Assembly: GCF_003334385.1 (NCBI RefSeq)
Contig: NZ_QOWN01000007.1
Direction: 5' to 3' (one strand)
Length of the DNA stretch: 64,000 nt
Source of the DNA: Escherichia coli
GTDB lineage: Bacteria; Pseudomonadota; Gammaproteobacteria; Enterobacterales; Enterobacteriaceae
The notes under the pieces are model-generated. The model was given only the letters and a program-made list of their open reading frames with translations. It was not told the origin of the DNA and searched no databases. Shown here piece after piece: positions 11,930 to 23,881 of this stretch; within the stretch, counting starts at the first letter, position 1, and each line of letters begins with the position of its first letter. A program made the translations under genes and the position numbers.

Positions 11930-12829
11930 ATGGCAGAATTTCCCGCCAGCTTACTGATTCTTAATGGCAAAAGTACTGACAATCTACCCTTGCGCGAAGC
12001 AATTATGCTGTTGCGTGAGGAAGGAATGACGATCCATGTGCGGGTCACCTGGGAGAAAGGTGATGCCGCACGATTTGTAGAGGAGGCCCGGAAGTTGGGC
12101 GTCGCAACGGTGATTGCTGGAGGTGGCGATGGCACCATTAATGAAGTTTCTACGGCGTTGATTCAGTGTGAGGGGGATGACATACCCGCGCTGGGAATTT
12201 TACCATTAGGAACCGCCAATGATTTTGCCACCAGCGTAGGGATTCCTGAGGCACTGGATAAGGCGCTGAAACTGGCAATTGCCGGTGACGCCATTGCGAT
12301 AGATATGGCGCAGGTCAACAAACAAACCTGTTTTATTAATATGGCGACAGGCGGATTTGGGACGCGTATTACCACAGAAACGCCGGAAAAATTAAAAGCC
12401 GCGCTGGGTAGCGTCTCTTACATCATTCATGGCTTAATGCGTATGGATACTCTGCAACCGGACCGTTGTGAAATCCGCGGTGAAAACTTTCACTGGCAAG
12501 GTGACGCCCTGGTCATTGGTATTGGTAACGGGCGTCAGGCCGGTGGCGGTCAGCAATTGTGTCCGAACGCGTTAATTAACGATGGCTTGCTGCAACTGCG
12601 CATTTTTACCGGCGATGAAATACTTCCGGCTCTCGTATCAACCTTAAAATCTGACGAAGATAACCCGAATATTATCGAAGGCGCTTCGTCGTGGTTTGAT
12701 ATTCAGGCACCACACGACATCACCTTTAATCTTGATGGCGAACCGTTGAGTGGGCAAAATTTTCATATTGAAATACTTCCGGCAGCGTTGCGTTGCCGTC
12801 TGCCACCAGATTGCCCGCTTTTACGTTAA
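11930..12829 (+). CDS. yegS: Lipid kinase YegS (DAGK-catalytic-domain family, 299 aa)
   Basis: ORF 11930..12829; GGDGT motif ([13 protein letters not shown]) typical of the diacylglycerol-kinase catalytic fold. Confidence 0.85.
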
Positions 12830-12902
12830 ATAAAAGCAAGCGCAGAAGCAGGATTAGCAGACCGGCATCATCCCTGGGATCTTCTGCGCTCACCCTTTTT
12901 TG

Positions 12903-13556
12903 TTACGCAGCTACGGCTAACGCTGCCAGTAATTCATTCATCGATAAATATCTTGCACTCGCCGCATTAAAGCAGGTTTGTTGGGCATCTTCTGATACCA
13001 CAATGGTGTTTATTCCTGCCGCCTGTGCTGCCTGAAAACCACTCACGCTGTCCTCTATAACCAAACAATCTGCAGCAGACAGTTGCAATTCTCGCAGTGC
13101 AGAAAGATAAACTGCCGGATGGGGTTTCCCATGCTTTTCGTCATCAGCACTACAAATCACCGAAAAATAATGCTGAATATTGAGTTTTGTCAGTACAGCA
13201 TCGATCACCTGGTAAGATGAAGAGGTTGCCAGCGCCAGTTGATAGCCACTCCGGCGCAAAAAAAATAACACGTCCTGAACGCCTGGCATCGCTTCGCCCG
13301 TCCCGGCAATCAACGTAGTGATCAGGCGGCGAATCTCACTTTCCAACAGTGCGGGTTCAATGTGTAAATGACAATATTCACACCAGGTTTGGGCAATCTC
13401 ATCCAGCCTTTTACCTTTAGTCAGTCTTATACACTCTTCGTCACTGACACATGCGCCCCACCTTGCCAGTGCTCCCTTTTGTGCCTCACGCCATAACCCT
13501 TCCGAATCAATGATGACGCCGTCCATATCAAAAATGACTGCTTTACAATTAAACAT
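12903..13556 (-). CDS. HAD-superfamily sugar-phosphatase / beta-phosphoglucomutase-like hydrolase (about 217 aa)
   Basis: ORF 12903..13601 (-); HAD motif I FDMDGVIID near the N-terminus; start chosen at ATG 13556 (MFNCKAVIFDMDGV). Confidence 0.6.
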   Translation of the reverse strand: MFNCKAVIFDMDGVIIDSEGLWREAQKGALARWGACVSDEECIRLTKGKRLDEIAQTWCEYCHLHIEPALLESEIRRLITTLIAGTGEAMPGVQDVLFFLRRSGYQLALATSSSYQVIDAVLTKLNIQHYFSVICSADDEKHGKPHPAVYLSALRELQLSAADCLVIEDSVSGFQAAQAAGINTIVVSEDAQQTCFNAASARYLSMNELLAALAVAA

Positions 13557-13600
13557 TGTTCCTCGCAATAAAGCCTGGCACCACACCAGGCTTGTCGTCA

Positions 13601-14878
13601 TCAGGAAATGGTGGCGGTCTTCCCTTCACACACTTGCTGATTTGAGAATCCCGGTTGTTCGACGCGAATAAACGGGCAAATAATAAACGCTATCACATAC
13701 AGGGTGGTGTAAGCGATAACCACACCAATAGTACTGAAATAAGGCAGAAGTACCACGGCGATTGCCGGAGCAAGGAAGTTGGACAACCCGGCTGAAAGGT
13801 TATAAACCGAAATAGCTGCTCCTTTATGTTTCGGTTCCAGTGCCGGGAAAACGGCTGCCATCGGTACGAATGCAGCAACAAAGATCCCCAGTGCCACCGC
13901 AGGTATCAGCGCCATAGCAAAGTTATGACCGAAATGTTGCGGCATGTAGTAGAACGCCAGGCTTGAAAGCGCCATTCCCACGCAACCAAACCAGCGAACA
14001 ACTTTCATCCAGCCCATTTTCTCTGCCAGCACGCCCCAGAATACGTTAGAGAAGATGGTGGTAAAGAAGAAGACTGCCCAGACCTGCAACCACTCAGAGG
14101 TGGTAAAGCCCAGCTCATCAACAAACATCATCGGCATAATTACGGCGAATCCGAATAAAGATAAGGTGTTGATAATGCGAACAATACTGGAAAGCAAAAT
14201 ATTGCGGTTGGTATAAAGCAAAGTCACCGCACGGCCCAGTTCGCTAAACTTCTCTTTTGTGGTTAGGTTTTGCATATGGCGTGGTGTTTCTACTTTGCGC
14301 ATAGAAATTAACGCAACAGCGCCACCAACCCCACAGAAGGCCAGCGCCAGCCATAATGTTCCCATTTCGCCAATAAGCGGAATGGTAAAACTGGGGATGT
14401 AGCTGCCGAATACGCCGATACCAATAGAGTAAACTGCCCAGAACCAGCCCAGAGCAGCACTGGTGCTGTCACTGCGTACGTTATGGACAATCGCCACAAT
14501 AAAGGCGTAGAGGAACAGCGGATAGGCTAGGCCACGAATACCATAAAACAGCAGGATTAACCCATAGTTCGCCTGCCCCAGACCAAAGACCAGAAACAGC
14601 ACGTGAAATACGCACCACAGCACAAAGCCGATAAACATGGTTTTTTGTGGCGTAATAATTTCGGCAACTACGCCGGAAACCCAGGCGGAAAGCGCTGCCG
14701 CCAGGCCATAGAGCGTAAAGGCAAAGGAGGCTTCTGCAGGCGTGAAACCCAGTGCTTTAATGTAATGCGACAGGAATGCCAGTTCAAAACCGTCTCCGGT
14801 CATAAAGATGGCAATGGCAATATATCCCCACACCAGATTTAAGGGTAATCCCAGCCATTGTTTATTTGTTAACGACAT
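13601..14878 (-). CDS. dalT: Pentitol (D-arabinitol) MFS transporter, DalT-like (about 425 aa)
   Basis: ORF 13601..14920 (-); start chosen at ATG 14878 (MSLTNKQWLGL) by alignment with the paralogous rbtT-like ORF; multi-TM. Confidence 0.7.
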   Translation of the reverse strand: MSLTNKQWLGLPLNLVWGYIAIAIFMTGDGFELAFLSHYIKALGFTPAEASFAFTLYGLAAALSAWVSGVVAEIITPQKTMFIGFVLWCVFHVLFLVFGLGQANYGLILLFYGIRGLAYPLFLYAFIVAIVHNVRSDSTSAALGWFWAVYSIGIGVFGSYIPSFTIPLIGEMGTLWLALAFCGVGGAVALISMRKVETPRHMQNLTTKEKFSELGRAVTLLYTNRNILLSSIVRIINTLSLFGFAVIMPMMFVDELGFTTSEWLQVWAVFFFTTIFSNVFWGVLAEKMGWMKVVRWFGCVGMALSSLAFYYMPQHFGHNFAMALIPAVALGIFVAAFVPMAAVFPALEPKHKGAAISVYNLSAGLSNFLAPAIAVVLLPYFSTIGVVIAYTTLYVIAFIICPFIRVEQPGFSNQQVCEGKTATIS

Positions 14879-14946
14879 AGTGACCTCGTTTGTAGGATAC
14901 AAAACGCCGCTCCGGTGCAAACACCGGAGGGCATTTGTGACAGATG

Positions 14947-16410
14947 TTATTGATTGCGATAGTTCAGGTCGTTGTGATACAGCGCAGTAAACTGCTGATA
15001 TCGTTGCATCAGCGCATTATGACGTTCAGGATCGCTGCGCCAGGTTTTGAAGATTTCAGGTTTTTCACACACTGCCGCCAGTGGTTTTCCCGCAGCAAGA
15101 CAGGCCAGACGCGCGGCTCCCAGCGCCCCACCCGTTTCACCGCCTTTATGCGTCACCACTGGCATATCGAGAATATCGGCCAGTAACTGCGCCCAGAATG
15201 GACTTCTCGCCCCCCCACCTACCAGCGAGCATTGCTCAATTGCCGTACCGCTTTCTTGCAGGACTCGCAGCCCATCGGCAATACCAAAGCTGACGCCTTC
15301 CAGCACTGCATATCCCATTAGCGCACGCTGACTGGAGTGTGTCAGCGCCCAGAACAATCCCCGGGCATGAGGATCGTTATGTGGCGTACGTTCACCAGAA
15401 AGATACGGGAGGAACATCGGTGCACTGGCTTTGTCTGCATCAGAAAGTTGGGCAATCTCTTCCAGTAACTCTGTTTCCGTTACCCCCACCAGACGGCAGA
15501 ACCATTGCAGACAACTGGCGGCACTGAGCATTACACTCATCTGGTGCCATAAATTCGGTAGTACGTGACAGAAAGCATGGACTGCTGATTGCGGCGCAGG
15601 ACGATAGGCATCTGTCACTACAAACAACACCCCGGAAGTTCCCAAAGAAATAAACGCATCTCCGGGAGAAACGGCCCCCACACCAATTGCGCTCACGGCG
15701 TTATCGCCACCGCCACCAGCAACTACAACCGAAGATGTCAGCCCCCAACGGCTGGCAACTTCAGGGGAAAGAGTGGCAGAAACGTCACAACCTTCCACCA
15801 GTTCCGGCATATTCGCCCGTGTCAGGCCACATTTTTCCAGCAACGAATCTGACCAGTCGCGTTTTTCCACGTCGAGCCACAACGTGCCAGCAGAATCCGA
15901 CATATCGGAAATCTTTTGGCCGGTCATTTTGAAACGCAAATAGTCTTTCGGCAGTAAAACGGTGGAAATGCGCGCAAAGTGCTGCGGCTCATGGCGCCGT
16001 ACCCATAGCAATTTGGGGGCGGTAAATCCAGGCATCGCCAGGTTTCCCGCTACCTGATGCAACTCTGGTGCGATCTCTTCCAGCTCCGCACACTCCTGCG
16101 CACTGCGGGTGTCGTTCCATAAAATCGCCGGACGAATCGCCTCTCCTTTTTCATCCAACAGGACGGCACCATGCATTTGACCAGAAAGGCCAATGGCTTT
16201 GATCGCCTGCCAGTGGTGACCGCATTTTTCCCGCAGGGTCGACATTAAATATTCCGTCGCTTCCCACCAGGCTTGCGGCGATTGTTCTGACCAGTGTGGA
16301 TGGGGCCGCTGAATGGTCAGCGGCGCACTATGGGTGGCAACAATTTCATTGTTTTCATCAATGACCAGCGCCTTAACTTCCGATGTGCCCAGATCGATAC
16401 CCAGATACAT
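14947..16410 (-). CDS. dalK: FGGY-family sugar kinase, xylulokinase (DalK/XylB-like, 487 aa)
   Basis: ORF 14947..16410 (-); N-terminal MYLGIDLGTSEVKA FGGY motif. Confidence 0.75.
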   Translation of the reverse strand: MYLGIDLGTSEVKALVIDENNEIVATHSAPLTIQRPHPHWSEQSPQAWWEATEYLMSTLREKCGHHWQAIKAIGLSGQMHGAVLLDEKGEAIRPAILWNDTRSAQECAELEEIAPELHQVAGNLAMPGFTAPKLLWVRRHEPQHFARISTVLLPKDYLRFKMTGQKISDMSDSAGTLWLDVEKRDWSDSLLEKCGLTRANMPELVEGCDVSATLSPEVASRWGLTSSVVVAGGGGDNAVSAIGVGAVSPGDAFISLGTSGVLFVVTDAYRPAPQSAVHAFCHVLPNLWHQMSVMLSAASCLQWFCRLVGVTETELLEEIAQLSDADKASAPMFLPYLSGERTPHNDPHARGLFWALTHSSQRALMGYAVLEGVSFGIADGLRVLQESGTAIEQCSLVGGGARSPFWAQLLADILDMPVVTHKGGETGGALGAARLACLAAGKPLAAVCEKPEIFKTWRSDPERHNALMQRYQQFTALYHNDLNYRNQ

Positions 16411-16423
16411 AACCGCCTCCTGG

Positions 16424-17791
16424 TTAGTTAATTAACGCGTAGACGTCAGCGATTTTTTCGCGCAACAACGCGGCAAAATCTTCACGTTCGGTTAAATCGC
16501 CAAACAGCGCTTTATCACTGGCATAAACAGCGACGGGATCGGCAGACTGGAACATTGCATGGACAGCTGGTGCATCAAGGATGCCATCCTGATATTCATA
16601 GGGCAGTTTGCCGTGATGCCATTGCTCCATGAATACGTAAAACAGTGCAGGTAACATGGCGGTGGCATTCGGGCGAACGCCTCGCTGGTAGCACTCTCGC
16701 AGTGTGGGGGCAATCATCGCCGGAATTTTCGAGAAACCATCCGCAGCGACGCGTTGGTTGGTGTCCTGAATATGTGGATTGGTAAAACGCTTGAGTACAA
16801 CATCACGGTAGGTTGGCAAATCGATACCGTTATCGCCCAAGCAAGGAATGACATCTTCCGTCACGTAGCGGTCGGCAATCTGATAGATAAAATCGGTCAT
16901 TGTGCTTTCGTGGATATATTTTTGACCGATTAACGTACCTGCCCAGGCGATGCAACTGTGTGAAGAGTTAAGAATGCGAATCTTCGCCTCTTCATAGGGG
17001 ATTACCGACGCCACCAGTTCGACACCGACCTTCTCCAGTGCCGGACGGACATCACGGAAATTATCTTCCACGACCCACTGGATAAAGGTTTCGCCCATTA
17101 CCGGCGCTTTATCGGCAATACCCGTTTGAGCCTTGATCCGTGCCGGAAGTTCTGCTGCCGGACGAGGCGTAATGCGGTCAACCATGGTATTCGGGCAAGT
17201 GGTATTTGTACTCAGCCAGTCGATGACATCCTGTTTGCCAGTTAGCTGGAGAAACTCAACCAGGCCATCATGGAAACGTTCACCATTATGGCGCACGTTA
17301 TCGCAATTCAGCAGGGTTAGTGGTCCGGCGTTATTTGCCATACGTGCTTCGAGGATACGGGTAATAACACCGTAAATTGTTTTGCATCCCCCTTTAAGAT
17401 CTGCCGCTAAATCAGGATTGTTAACTTCCAGTTTGTGACTGGTATTCAGGTAGTACCCGCCTTCGGTGACGGTGAAAGCAATCACTTTTGTCTTCGGATC
17501 TGCCCCTTCAGCAATCAGCGGTTGTAAATCTGCCTGCCACGGTATCAACTTCTGAATTGAGGTGATCTCTTCATATTCGCTTACCCCTTCCGGGCTGACG
17601 GTTTCCAGCACATAGCGACCTTTCTGTGCACTGAGTGCCTGTACGACATGTTCAGCATCATTACGAATATTGCCCGCAGCAATGCTCCAGCGTTTATCGC
17701 CCATCACCTGCAAACGGTGTAGATACCACGCCTGATGTGCGCGATGAAAAGAACCTAACCCGATGTGCAGCCATGTAAATTGTTCGTTCAT
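16424..17791 (-). CDS. dalD: Mannitol-dehydrogenase-family D-arabinitol 4-dehydrogenase (DalD-like, about 455 aa)
   Basis: ORF 16424..17836 (-); start chosen at ATG 17791 preceded by GGAG; N-terminal [13 protein letters not shown] nucleotide-binding motif. Confidence 0.75.
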
Positions 17792-18003: not shown

Positions 18004-18945
18004 GTGAACAAAGAAGATGACATCAGGCTCGATCAAAAAGTACGGGCGGCATGGATGTACTACATTGCCGGACTTAATCAGAGTGAAATCGCAAGTCAGT
18101 TAGGTACTTCACGGCCAGTGGTTCAACGCCTGATAGCAGCAGCGAAAGACGAAGGGATTGTGTCGATTGGATTGCATCATCCGGTTGCCAACTGTCTCGA
18201 TTATGCCCAACTGTTAAAGGAAAAGTACCAATTAACCGACTGCAATATTATGCCGGTTTACAGTATTGAAAGTACGCTCGACAGCGTGACATTTGGCTGT
18301 TATCAACTGATGGCGCGTTACTTACAGGGTGACAAACCGACCATCGTTGGTATTGGTTCTGGCTTAACGTTGAAGAAAACCATTAAACGTATCGATTTTG
18401 ATAGTCAGAATACCCGCTGTGTGGCGCTGATTAGCGCCATGAATGAACACGGGCAATGTAACTATTACGACGACGTACCGCTGCTTTTGGCGAGAAAAAT
18501 TCAGGGAAAATATTACCAGTGGCCAGCTCCACGCTATGCTCAGTCCCGCGAAGAGTACCAAATGTGGTCAACCAATCGATTGTTCCGCAACGTCTCTACC
18601 GTAGCGCGTGACTCTGATGTTATTTTCGTGGGTATTGGTGCTTTAGGTCGTCAAAGCCCTATTTTCAAAGATGGCTTTATTGATGAGCAGCAACTGGAAG
18701 AGTTAACAGCACGCGGAGGCGTTGGTGAAATCCTCGGACGCTTTATTGATGCTGAAGGCAATGTTGTGGAAAGCCAGATCAACCAGATGATCACCAGCCA
18801 TGATATCCGCGAAAGCAACTGCCCACGTATCGCAGCTGCCTGTGGTGAGGATAAACGTCCGGCGATCCTCGCAGCATTAAAAGGTGGGTGGATCAACGGT
18901 CTGGTCACCGATGAACACACCGCACGCTGGTTGCTGACACGTTAA
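18004..18945 (+). CDS. dalR: SorC/DeoR-like sugar-binding transcriptional regulator, divergent from the dal operon (DalR-like, 313 aa)
   Basis: ORF with GTG start at 18004 and GAGGTAGGG upstream; N-terminal HTH (LNQSEIASQLGTSRPVVQRL) plus sugar-binding-type C-terminus. Confidence 0.65.
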   Translation: MNKEDDIRLDQKVRAAWMYYIAGLNQSEIASQLGTSRPVVQRLIAAAKDEGIVSIGLHHPVANCLDYAQLLKEKYQLTDCNIMPVYSIESTLDSVTFGCYQLMARYLQGDKPTIVGIGSGLTLKKTIKRIDFDSQNTRCVALISAMNEHGQCNYYDDVPLLLARKIQGKYYQWPAPRYAQSREEYQMWSTNRLFRNVSTVARDSDVIFVGIGALGRQSPIFKDGFIDEQQLEELTARGGVGEILGRFIDAEGNVVESQINQMITSHDIRESNCPRIAAACGEDKRPAILAALKGGWINGLVTDEHTARWLLTR

Positions 18946-22505: not shown

Positions 22506-22606
22506 TTAACCAGCCGCCTGACGCTGTTTTCAGGCAATCACTAATAACGACTCACTCCGGTAATATCCCGGAGTGCATTCATCTGCACCCTAAAAACGAG
22601 GTTTAT

Positions 22607-23881
22607 ATGTCCAGAAATAATAAACAGTGGTTGGGTTTGCCACTGCATCTGATATGGGGATATATCGCCATCGCAGTATTTATGACTGGTGATGGTTTCG
22701 AACTCGCATTCTTATCGCACTATATTAAATCGTTAGGCTTCACACCTGCGGAAGCCTCTTTTGCCTTTACGCTCTACGGCCTGGCGGCTGCCCTTTCCGC
22801 CTGGGTTTCTGGGGTAGTAGCGGAAATCATCACGCCGCAAAAAACCATGCTGATTGGTTTTGTCCTATGGTGCGTATTCCATGTTCTGTTTCTGGTCTTT
22901 GGATTAGGACAGGCAAACTATGGGTTAATCCTGCTGTTTTACGGGATTCGTGGTTTAGCGTATCCGCTATTTCTCTACTCATTTATCGTCGTTATTATTC
23001 ATAACGTGCGTAGCGAAAATTCCAGTTCTGCTCTGGGTTGGTACTGGGCGGTATATTCAGTAGGGATCGGTGTTGCTGGCAGTTATATTCCCAGTTTTAC
23101 GATACCGATTATGGGTGAAATGGGAACCTTATGGCTGGCACTGGCGTTCTGCTTTGCTGGCGGTGTCATTGCCATGATCTCCTTGCGTCATGTTAAAACG
23201 CCTGGACATATGCATAATTTAACTCCCCGTGAGAAGTTTGCAGAATTAAGTCGGGCAGTAACTTTACTTTATACCAACCGCAATATTTTTCTCTCCAGTA
23301 TTGTGCGCATTATAAATACCTTATCGTTATTCGGTTTTGCGGTCATTATGCCAATGATGTTTGTGGATGAACTGGGATTCACCACCTCTGAATGGTTGCA
23401 GGTCTGGGCGGCATTTTTCTTTACCACTATTTTCTCTAATATTTTTTGGGGGATTGTGGCAGAAAAAATGGGCTGGATGCGTGTTATTCGCTGGTTTGGT
23501 TGCCTCGGGATGGCAGCATCAAGTTTAGCGTTTTACTACATGCCGCAATACTTTGGTCACAACTACTGGATGGCAATGATTCCGGCGATTGCTCTGGGAA
23601 CTTTTGTTGCTGCATTTGTGCCGATGGCCGCTGTCTTCCCGGCACTGGAACCAAAACACAAAGGTGCTGCAATCTCGGTTTACAACCTCTCTGCGGGTAT
23701 GTCTAACTTCCTGGCTCCGGCAATTGCCGTGGTGTTATTACCGTGGTTTAGCACTATCGGTGTGGTCATTGCCTATACAGCATTGTATCTATTGGCCTTT
23801 GTCCTTTGCGCATTCATTCGCGTTGAGCAGCCAGGATTCAGTTCTGCGCCAGTGACTGAGAAGGCATTGAATATCTCCTGA
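22607..23881 (+). CDS. rbtT: Pentitol (ribitol) MFS transporter, RbtT-like (424 aa); paralog of the dalT-like gene
   Basis: ORF 22607..23881; long stretches of amino-acid identity with the 13601..14878 product. Confidence 0.7.
   Translation: MSRNNKQWLGLPLHLIWGYIAIAVFMTGDGFELAFLSHYIKSLGFTPAEASFAFTLYGLAAALSAWVSGVVAEIITPQKTMLIGFVLWCVFHVLFLVFGLGQANYGLILLFYGIRGLAYPLFLYSFIVVIIHNVRSENSSSALGWYWAVYSVGIGVAGSYIPSFTIPIMGEMGTLWLALAFCFAGGVIAMISLRHVKTPGHMHNLTPREKFAELSRAVTLLYTNRNIFLSSIVRIINTLSLFGFAVIMPMMFVDELGFTTSEWLQVWAAFFFTTIFSNIFWGIVAEKMGWMRVIRWFGCLGMAASSLAFYYMPQYFGHNYWMAMIPAIALGTFVAAFVPMAAVFPALEPKHKGAAISVYNLSAGMSNFLAPAIAVVLLPWFSTIGVVIAYTALYLLAFVLCAFIRVEQPGFSSAPVTEKALNIS

Follow-up and report, generated by a model that had tools for sequence, protein, structure and literature searches.

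What is a phosphatase gene doing behind the genes for D-arabinitol catabolism in Escherichia coli? The question is raised by a gene of the HAD superfamily (hereafter the HAD gene) located at 12903..13556 on the minus strand of a 64,000-nucleotide stretch of E. coli DNA from contig NZ_QOWN01000007.1 (hereafter the window), directly after dalD, dalK and dalT, which encode D-arabinitol 4-dehydrogenase, D-xylulokinase and the D-arabinitol transporter. Gene order across genera marks it as a conserved member of the D-arabinitol operon, the fourth in dalD-dalK-dalT-HAD, although an optional one. Within E. coli, it belongs to the pentitol (dal/rbt) island, not to the chromosomal backbone, and it tracks dalD. 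Moreover, motifs and structural modelling predict that it encodes a functional sugar- or polyol-phosphate phosphatase.

The HAD gene was defined by its open reading frame, NCBIfam and PDB matches, an alignment of homologues, an AlphaFold2 (AF2) model and the PGAP annotation. It runs from an ATG at 13556 to a TAA stop at 12903-12905 and encodes 217 amino acids plus stop, with the N-terminus MFNCKAVIFDMDGVIIDSE, in which the FDMDGV motif lies; PGAP/RefSeq labels the product WP_000481293.1, 'HAD family hydrolase', with the start at 13556. The protein matches 41 HAD models of NCBIfam and the PDB entry 1TE2 (E = 2.3e-28), and the Pfam families PF13419 (HAD_2) and PF00702 are found on the identical protein P0001; by these scores, its HAD family identity is far beyond chance. 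A preliminary description of this DNA had reported a HAD-superfamily gene with an FDMDGV motif, which these matches confirm, and had placed it after the dalT stop on the same strand with a gap of 45 bp; the strand and order stand, but the spacer covers 13557-13600, i.e., 44 nt in E. coli (17-63 nt across 28 species). Some ENA gene calls (P0001) choose another ATG in the same frame, at 13601, which shares bases with the dalT stop (ATGA) and would lengthen the protein to 232 amino acids. We rejected it and took 13556 as the true start, because a Shine-Dalgarno GAGGA (read from the sequence at 13560..13564, minus strand) lies 4 nt upstream of that ATG, because PGAP and 28/28 orthologues begin downstream of 13601, 3-6 codons before IFDMDG, and because the 15 extra codons of the longer form are not conserved, lack a Shine-Dalgarno and cross a conserved hairpin.

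When 43 homologues were aligned, the catalytic residues of all four HAD motifs were found in place: motif I reads D10-M-D12-G-V14, with D10 invariant and D12 at least 90% conserved; T111 and S112 of motif II are each at least 90% conserved; and K144 of motif III and E168-D169 of motif IV are invariant. The AF2 model (pLDDT 96, pTM 0.91) places cap helices 19-86 between strand 1 and the rest of the Rossmannoid core, so that motifs I-IV and an alpha-helical cap directly after motif I, the features of the HAD-IA (C1-cap) subfamily, are all present. Its structural neighbours are YniC/HxpB (1TE2, TM 0.87), CbbY (TM 0.86) and the phosphatase domain of MtlD (7OCS, TM 0.85), and all of these act on polyol or pentulose phosphates. 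As a separate observation, protein P0003, from an Escherichia sp. MR cluster with 38 member sequences, reads FDMNGV for FDMDGV; Asn at residue 12, replacing the general acid/base Asp, would be expected to cripple catalysis, and the enzyme may be inactivated in that lineage.

Membership in the island was evaluated with a 3.2-kb query running from yegS to dalT, compared by megablast with 5,426 complete E. coli genomes. The yegS part of the query was matched in 5,423 of them and the rest in 332 only. In pentitol-negative E. coli, the match stops exactly at the yegS stop codon (query position 1030, window 12829), which sets the left boundary of the pentitol island at 12830, the first base after that codon. 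The HAD gene alone was found in 308/5,426 genomes, in all of them at 99% identity or more, and in no pentitol-negative genome. The dalD gene is present in 330 genomes (approximately 6%), 303 of them having the window allele and the other 27 one that is about 83% identical in nucleotides; in these 27, megablast is not sensitive enough to pick up the HAD gene, and the one that was checked, enteropathogenic E. coli (EPEC) O127:H6, carries behind dalT a HAD gene of 213 amino acids, 81% identical. The earlier suggestion that the HAD gene marks the left edge of the island is thus upheld, as it is the leftmost island gene, and the opposite case, that it is part of the backbone shared with pentitol-negative strains, is contradicted by the end of homology at 12829.

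The linkage extends well beyond E. coli. In a survey of homologues with one genome per species (80 loci), in which the window Dal proteins were used in tblastn to describe the neighbourhood, the HAD gene stands directly after dalDKT, with dalR divergent, in 22/24 proteobacterial loci whose homologue is at least 48% identical. The genera concerned are Klebsiella (seven species), Raoultella, Enterobacter, Rouxiella, Mangrovibacter, Cedecea, Dryocola, Buttiauxella, Superficieibacter, Pluralibacter and Vibrio, the two exceptions being stand-alone genes in V. ruber and a relative; 6 further species beyond the survey also show dal linkage. The order dalR <-> dalD-dalK-dalT-HAD is found in K. variicola, C. 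koseri, V. fluvialis and V. natriegens, Pectobacterium odoriferum has dalD-dalK-dalT-HAD-tal-tkt, and Aeromonas caviae has dalD-dalK, a 470-bp gap with no dalT, and then HAD-tal-tkt. The outer flank of the HAD gene changes by genus (yegS, nitroreductase, tal-tkt, cobT), and therefore the conserved linkage is that to dalDK(T). Whether the gene lies next to dalT elsewhere had been put forward as a check, and it does so in the seven Klebsiella species, Raoultella, C. koseri, Enterobacter, Pectobacterium, Vibrio and both E. coli alleles. In addition, dalR/dalDKT operons with no HAD gene exist in Serratia rhizosphaerae, an Erwinia sp. and Uruburuella (a Neisseriaceae contig), in agreement with the earlier view that the phosphatase is not part of the core dal pathway. 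Overall, a shared strand, a short spacer, an order kept across genera and co-occurrence with dalD were all found, as for a member of the operon; universality was not.

In a neighbour-joining tree, the dal-linked HAD proteins form one clade, and HxpB of E. coli lies on a distant branch. Against the HxpB model NF008087, the protein scores 171.6 bits, below the cut-off of 191; this score, an identity of 32%, the separate clade and the different gene context rule it out as an HxpB orthologue. It is likewise below the cut-offs of the beta-phosphoglucomutase equivalog TIGR01990 (91.3 bits vs 189.4) and of the beta-phosphoglucomutase/YqaB subfamily model TIGR02009 (116 bits vs 153). A neighbouring clade is made up of Pasteurellaceae homologues, 40-46% identical, that lie inside the operon of the glucitol phosphotransferase system (PTS), srlA-srlE-srlB-srlD-(gutM)-HAD-srlR-gutQ. 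By its context, this srl-embedded homologue appears to be an uncharacterised operon-resident hexitol-phosphate phosphatase, and a polyol-phosphate-related role is supported because homologues repeatedly reside in polyol operons. Examples are the loci of Bibersteinia trehalosi (L041 6492-7136) and Mannheimia sp. (L045 6489-7136), with mtlA-mtlD adjoining in Mannheimia. Flavobacterial homologues, 42-47% identical, were also found (Flavobacterium, Polaribacter, Flavicella and Wenyingzhuangia; L029-L031, L038, L042, L043). They share a few bases with the end of a gene weakly like NtrR, the ADP-ribose-responsive repressor (83.8 bits vs a cut-off of 400, sub-threshold), and a mannitol-dehydrogenase-family gene lies about 4-5 kb off on the opposite strand in 5/6 of these loci (none at L029).

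The dal-linked gene has also been maintained by selection. Between the window and the EPEC allele, DalR, DalD, DalK and DalT are 92-94% identical and the HAD protein 81%, with ratios of non-synonymous to synonymous substitution (dN/dS) of 0.02-0.04 for the dal genes and 0.09 for the HAD gene; between the window and C. koseri, the identities are 90-93% and 69%, and the ratios 0.03 and 0.06. The ratios are limited to these two closest comparisons, as dS is saturated beyond C. koseri. Judging from them, the HAD gene is under purifying selection and clearly functional. Its protein accepts amino-acid change 3-4 times faster than dalRDKT, as expected of an accessory, loosely specific enzyme.

We then focused on the spacer between dalT and the HAD gene, which folds into a GC-rich stem-loop, AAGCCUGGU-GUGGU-GCCAGGCUU, followed by UAUUG (13571..13593, minus strand; 9 bp, -13.8 kcal/mol); 7 nt separate it from the dalT stop and 14 nt from the HAD start. 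A counterpart was found in 27/28 dal-HAD loci, with folding energies of -14 to -28 kcal/mol and a median z of -2.7 vs shuffles, the sole locus lacking it being that of V. albus, where the spacer is 17 nt. Its stem sequences vary by genus with pairing preserved: the 5' and 3' arms are AGCCUGG and CCAGGCU in E. coli, GGCUGGCAUG and CAUGCCAGCC in Klebsiella, GGCCGGCAUG and CAUGCCGGCC in K. michiganensis, GGCAGGCAUGG and CCAUGCCUGCC in Pectobacterium, and GGGUAUGGCAA and UUGCCAUACC in Vibrio. The RNAalifold consensus has 9 pairs, 7 of them with compensatory double changes. A search of Rfam with the hairpins of the locus gave no family matches, only noise at E >= 0.086, far below gathering scores. 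After the spacer hairpin, Vibrio (U6AU5) and C. koseri (U5) have a canonical U-tract, E. coli and Klebsiella a moderate one, and Mangrovibacter and Rouxiella none; the element is therefore not uniformly an intrinsic terminator, and it looks terminator-like in Vibrio and C. koseri and weakly so in E. coli. Operons with no HAD gene have a terminator hairpin at the equivalent place, immediately downstream of dalT. Occlusion of the ribosome-binding site, as in the AraL system of Bacillus subtilis, is not supported in E. coli, where the Shine-Dalgarno of the HAD gene is predicted to be mostly unpaired in the folding ensemble (unpaired probability 0.6-0.96). A scan for sigma-70-like promoters on the minus strand between dalT and the HAD gene found none, which is weak negative evidence; by its stem-extension rule, the promoter and terminator scan also overlooked the spacer hairpin as a terminator.

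Folding and comparison of loci revealed a second hairpin in the dalK-dalT spacer (14879..14946, minus strand), CCUCCGGUG...CACCGGAG, then GCGGCGUUUUGU. Together with the leader CUGUACCCUGAAAACGAGGUCA before dalT, it is kept in 24/24 loci, including the operons that lack the HAD gene. Since this hairpin is conserved as well, and transcription has to pass it if dalT is to be expressed, stem-loops divide the dal operon into dalDK, dalT and HAD. The same comparison weakens the idea that the spacer hairpin before the HAD gene is merely the ancestral terminator of the operon. In Enterobacter sp. 10-1 and K. indica, the dalK-dalT spacer reaches 183-194 nt through an extra long palindromic insert. Finally, a bidirectional terminator-like hairpin lies between the convergent yegS and HAD genes (12838..12892, no assigned strand; fold -36.2 kcal/mol, z = -2.8), inside island-specific DNA, with its stem at 12840-12848 / 12881-12889 and T-rich runs on both strands. 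It is this hairpin that is predicted to be the real end of the dal transcription unit.

Regarding the surroundings of the HAD gene, the gene order in the window is mdtD-baeSR-yegP-yegQ-yegR-yegS, HAD-dalT-dalK-dalD <-> dalR, rbtR <-> rbtD-rbtK-rbtT, fbaB-yegT. The dalT gene (13601..14878, minus strand; stop TGA at 13601-13603, on the strand of the HAD gene) encodes a D-arabinitol transporter of the major facilitator superfamily, RbtT/DalT/CsbX family (TIGR00897, 513.9 bits vs a cut-off of 375; PGAP coordinates in strain KE58). It is preceded by dalK, annotated xylB (14947..16410, minus strand; TIGR01312, 636 bits), and dalD (16424..17791, minus strand; NF043014, 755.7 bits vs a cut-off of 600), and divergent from dalD is dalR (18004..18945, plus strand), encoding a SorC-type sugar-binding repressor (PGAP 'sugar-binding transcriptional regulator'; Pfam PF04198 in orthologous loci). 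K-12 has gatR...gatY between yegS and fbaB in place of the pentitol island. The fbaB-yegS position is common to E. coli, C. koseri (L004 8742-9641) and Klebsiella (K. variicola, L003 8961-15412), and therefore the pentitol locus is old in Enterobacteriaceae and not a recent acquisition of E. coli. In Klebsiella, six extra genes, for an MR_MLE enolase-type enzyme and a peptide ABC transporter, lie between the HAD gene and yegS.

Several E. coli strains show rearrangements in this region. In EPEC O127:H6 (L093, NZ_LT903847.1, 2512-15412), yegS-HAD-dalTKD-dalR is followed by pseudogenised rbtR/rbtD/rbtK and then by an intact gatR-gatD-gatC... cluster; dal and gat thus coexist in one genome and rbt alone has decayed, a case relevant to the 'genotypic exclusion' between pentitol and galactitol genes. 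In strain PSJ-32-1 (L094 5074-6632), an IS1-mediated deletion removed the whole dal/rbt island, so that between yegS and fbaB only 228 bp from the 3' end of the HAD gene and a 3' piece of rbtT remain, and strain CX21 carries an IS3 insertion in the yegS-dalK stretch. The window also holds an inverted repeat of 1,256 nt, 78% complementary (13646-14901 / 22584-23839), which corresponds to the dalT and rbtT paralogues (85% amino-acid identity) at the two ends of the island; the HAD gene lies outside the left arm and no equivalent follows rbtT. Link and Reiner reportedly described in 1982 inverted repeats of about 1.4 kb around the rbt-atl genes of E. coli C, and the repeat of the window matches these. 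At the yegQ-yegR site, KE58 (L001 1-13135) has a complete P2-like prophage with integrase, cox, replication and capsid genes, K-12 keeps only an ogrK remnant, and the window (approximately 10870-11900) appears to have neither.

The observed integrity of the gene, its motifs and fold, its place in the island, its synteny, the purifying selection and the conservation of the hairpins are best accommodated, in our view, by a functional HAD-IA safety valve for polyol or pentulose phosphates, encoded by an optional fourth dal gene and expressed by read-through, and we hold this reading with moderate confidence. The HAD gene would have no promoter of its own and would be transcribed from the dalD promoter by read-through of the spacer stem-loop, with the operon terminator proper after the HAD stop. 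The stem-loop may act as a partial terminator, as a stabiliser of the 3' end of the dalDKT message, or as both, keeping the phosphatase below the pathway enzymes; expression graded along the operon, with the HAD gene getting least, would be the most economical reading of the hairpins. The enzyme itself would hydrolyse phosphorylated pentitols or pentuloses that accumulate on induction of the pathway, candidate substrates being D-arabinitol or xylitol phosphate, arising from a side-activity of xylulokinase or from PTS systems, or excess D-xylulose 5-phosphate (Xu5P). When xylulokinase or the fructose PTS forms xylitol phosphate, the compound is a documented toxic dead-end (PMC3962153, PMC6411968). 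The products of the enzyme would return to a free form that can be exported or used again. The preliminary description had likewise taken the gene to be probably co-transcribed with the dal genes and a possible detoxifier of pentitol or pentulose phosphates, a hedged reading that the checks it proposed support.

Operon membership is supported by the shared strand, the 44-nt spacer, a good Shine-Dalgarno, conserved synteny, monophyly and co-occurrence with dalD, and in Aeromonas the HAD gene has stayed linked to dalDK though dalT was lost there. The tal-tkt genes after the HAD gene in Pectobacterium and Aeromonas suggest, moreover, that the pathway is under real pressure to deal with an overflow of Xu5P. 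Several points weigh on the other side. In some species, transcription might end fully at the spacer hairpin, whose U-tract in Vibrio is of the textbook kind, and expression of the HAD gene would then require an unrecognised promoter inside dalT. The pathway imports unphosphorylated arabinitol and has only one phosphorylated intermediate, and therefore a phosphatase acting on Xu5P would make a futile cycle with DalK. Substrate specificity within this HAD subfamily is not readable from sequence, the 3-4 times faster evolution fits a weakly selected, loosely specific enzyme as well, and a translational block of the AraL type is not directly applicable, as the Shine-Dalgarno is not occluded in E. 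coli. Furthermore, the HAD gene is missing from working dal operons of Serratia, Erwinia and Neisseriaceae and the paralogous rbt operon has no counterpart, so that any benefit of the gene must be conditional.

The stand-alone position of the closest non-dal relatives (V. ruber) near hrpA, together with the terminator-like spacer hairpin of Vibrio and C. koseri and the fact that HxpB is the best NCBIfam and PDB match, would suit an independent sugar phosphatase of housekeeping type, a second HxpB with its own promoter and a function unrelated to arabinitol. We consider this unlikely, since the gene has stayed beside dalDK(T) in Enterobacterales, Vibrionaceae and Aeromonas with outer flanks that differ, and since the 14-25 nt between hairpin and start codon leave no room for a promoter, in line with the scan, which gave no sigma-70-like site upstream. 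In addition, the protein is not an HxpB orthologue, as its score, identity and clade indicate, and in E. coli the gene occurs only where dalD is present. A pathway running in reverse or sideways, either from Xu5P to xylulose through the HAD enzyme and on to D-arabinitol through DalD, as an osmolyte or redox sink, or with a beta-phosphoglucomutase-like mutase acting on pentitol or pentulose phosphates, is very improbable: the operon carries a kinase, an uptake transporter and a repressor of the kind typical of catabolic operons, the genes added to it, tal and tkt, lead Xu5P off into central metabolism, and both beta-phosphoglucomutase models score the protein below cut-off. What speaks for such a pathway is that the second-best structural neighbour is the phosphatase domain of the mannitol-making MtlD of Acinetobacter and that the protein falls within the TIGR02009 subfamily model.

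It could also be argued that the gene is decaying and functionless at present, a passenger kept only as part of a mobile block, given its faster evolution relative to dalRDKT, its absence from some dal operons, the P0003 lineage with Asn at the second aspartate of motif I and the IS1 deletion stump in PSJ-32-1. Nevertheless, with dN/dS at 0.06-0.09 for dS above 1, frames intact in 28 species, catalytic residues invariant or at least 90% conserved (D12, T111, S112) in the 43 homologues, and both Shine-Dalgarno and spacer architecture conserved, we give this explanation hardly any credence. The safety-valve reading can, finally, be taken one step further. The dal-linked clade might be a dedicated repair enzyme for pentitol phosphates, acting on D-arabinitol or xylitol 5-phosphate made by the xylulokinase of the operon or by the hexitol PTS, at a dose set by the attenuator hairpin, and might form with the srl sister clade a family of polyol-operon damage-control phosphatases. 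We put this forward tentatively, as a possibility with the odds against it. If true, a dedicated repair enzyme might help to explain when pentitol and galactitol genes coexist in E. coli.

A literature search for a phosphatase in dal operons, or for dalT, dalK or rbtT, returned nothing relevant; the original Klebsiella dal/rbt paper (Heuel et al. 1998) lay outside that search. The dal-linked protein is an uncharacterised operon-resident HAD sugar- or polyol-phosphate phosphatase of an already known type, tidy but ordinary, to which the conserved attenuator-like hairpin and the srl-embedded sister clade make modest additions; no known principle is overturned. Its interest lies in that operon-resident HAD phosphatases are a recurring, poorly understood layer limiting sugar-phosphate stress and metabolite damage. 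The present gene offers a tractable case, being optional, with natural controls that have or lack it, part of a classic model of pathway evolution (the pentitol genes of Klebsiella and E. coli C), and with a dose probably set by a conserved RNA element. Knowledge of its substrate would improve the annotation of approximately 500 identical 'HAD family hydrolase' sequences and of hundreds of Klebsiella and Enterobacter orthologues, and could be of use in the bioproduction of xylitol and arabitol, where the toxicity of pentitol phosphates limits yield.

Among known systems, the closest in sequence and structure is HxpB/YniC (1TE2; NF008087), the hexitol phosphatase B or 2-deoxyglucose-6-phosphatase of E. 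coli, which shares the HAD-IA C1-cap fold (TM 0.87) and the same four motifs. HxpB acts on sugar and polyol monophosphates, as the dal-linked protein is predicted to do. Four HxpB residues, E22, W25, L52 and S117, are predicted to contact the sugar (PMC10576766); E22, W25 and S117 are kept in the dal-linked protein as E19, W22 and S113, whereas at the cap-loop position of Leu52 there is a nearly invariant lysine, K49. YniC is known to counter the toxicity of a dead-end sugar phosphate, and its overproduction protects against 2-deoxyglucose (PMC3607736, citing Kuznetsova 2006). The two differ in that the HxpB gene stands alone in the backbone, flanked by yniB and ydjM, the dal-linked gene being operon-linked and island-borne, and in that the proteins, 32% identical, belong to different clades.

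Two further systems share the fold at about 26% identity. The phosphatase domain of Acinetobacter baumannii MtlD, solved with mannitol-1-phosphate bound (7OCS), belongs to the same subfamily (TM 0.85; 65 bits by sequence) and couples a polyol-phosphate phosphatase to an enzyme of the mannitol-dehydrogenase family, the family of DalD; MtlD, however, is a fusion protein with a biosynthetic function, making mannitol as a compatible solute, whereas the dal genes are separate and their operon is catabolic. CbbY, the xylulose-1,5-bisphosphate phosphatase (4UAR/4UAU; TM 0.86), is a metabolite-damage-control phosphatase for a xylulose phosphate encoded beside the pathway that it protects, but it acts on a bisphosphate that RuBisCO forms as a by-product and that would not be expected to arise when enteric bacteria catabolise arabinitol.

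The closest functional parallel is AraL of B. subtilis, a non-essential HAD phosphatase in the arabinose operon araABDLMNPQ-abfA, which is active on Xu5P among other substrates, is kept at a low level by an mRNA hairpin and has been proposed to clear sugar phosphates that accumulate accidentally (PMC3207120). As in the dal operon, a HAD phosphatase gene stands in a catabolic operon yielding Xu5P, with a stem-loop upstream of or over its start. Since AraL is of subfamily IIA (NagD type), the likeness is one of analogy and not of homology. Moreover, the AraL hairpin occludes the ribosome-binding site, whereas the Shine-Dalgarno of the dal-linked gene is predicted to be free in E. coli and its hairpin more like a terminator or 3'-end stabiliser, and AraL is internal to its operon, whereas the dal-linked gene is distal in most species. 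By analogy, AraL would be the best precedent for a safety-valve role of the dal-linked phosphatase, whose own dispensability is implied by the natural dal operons that lack it.

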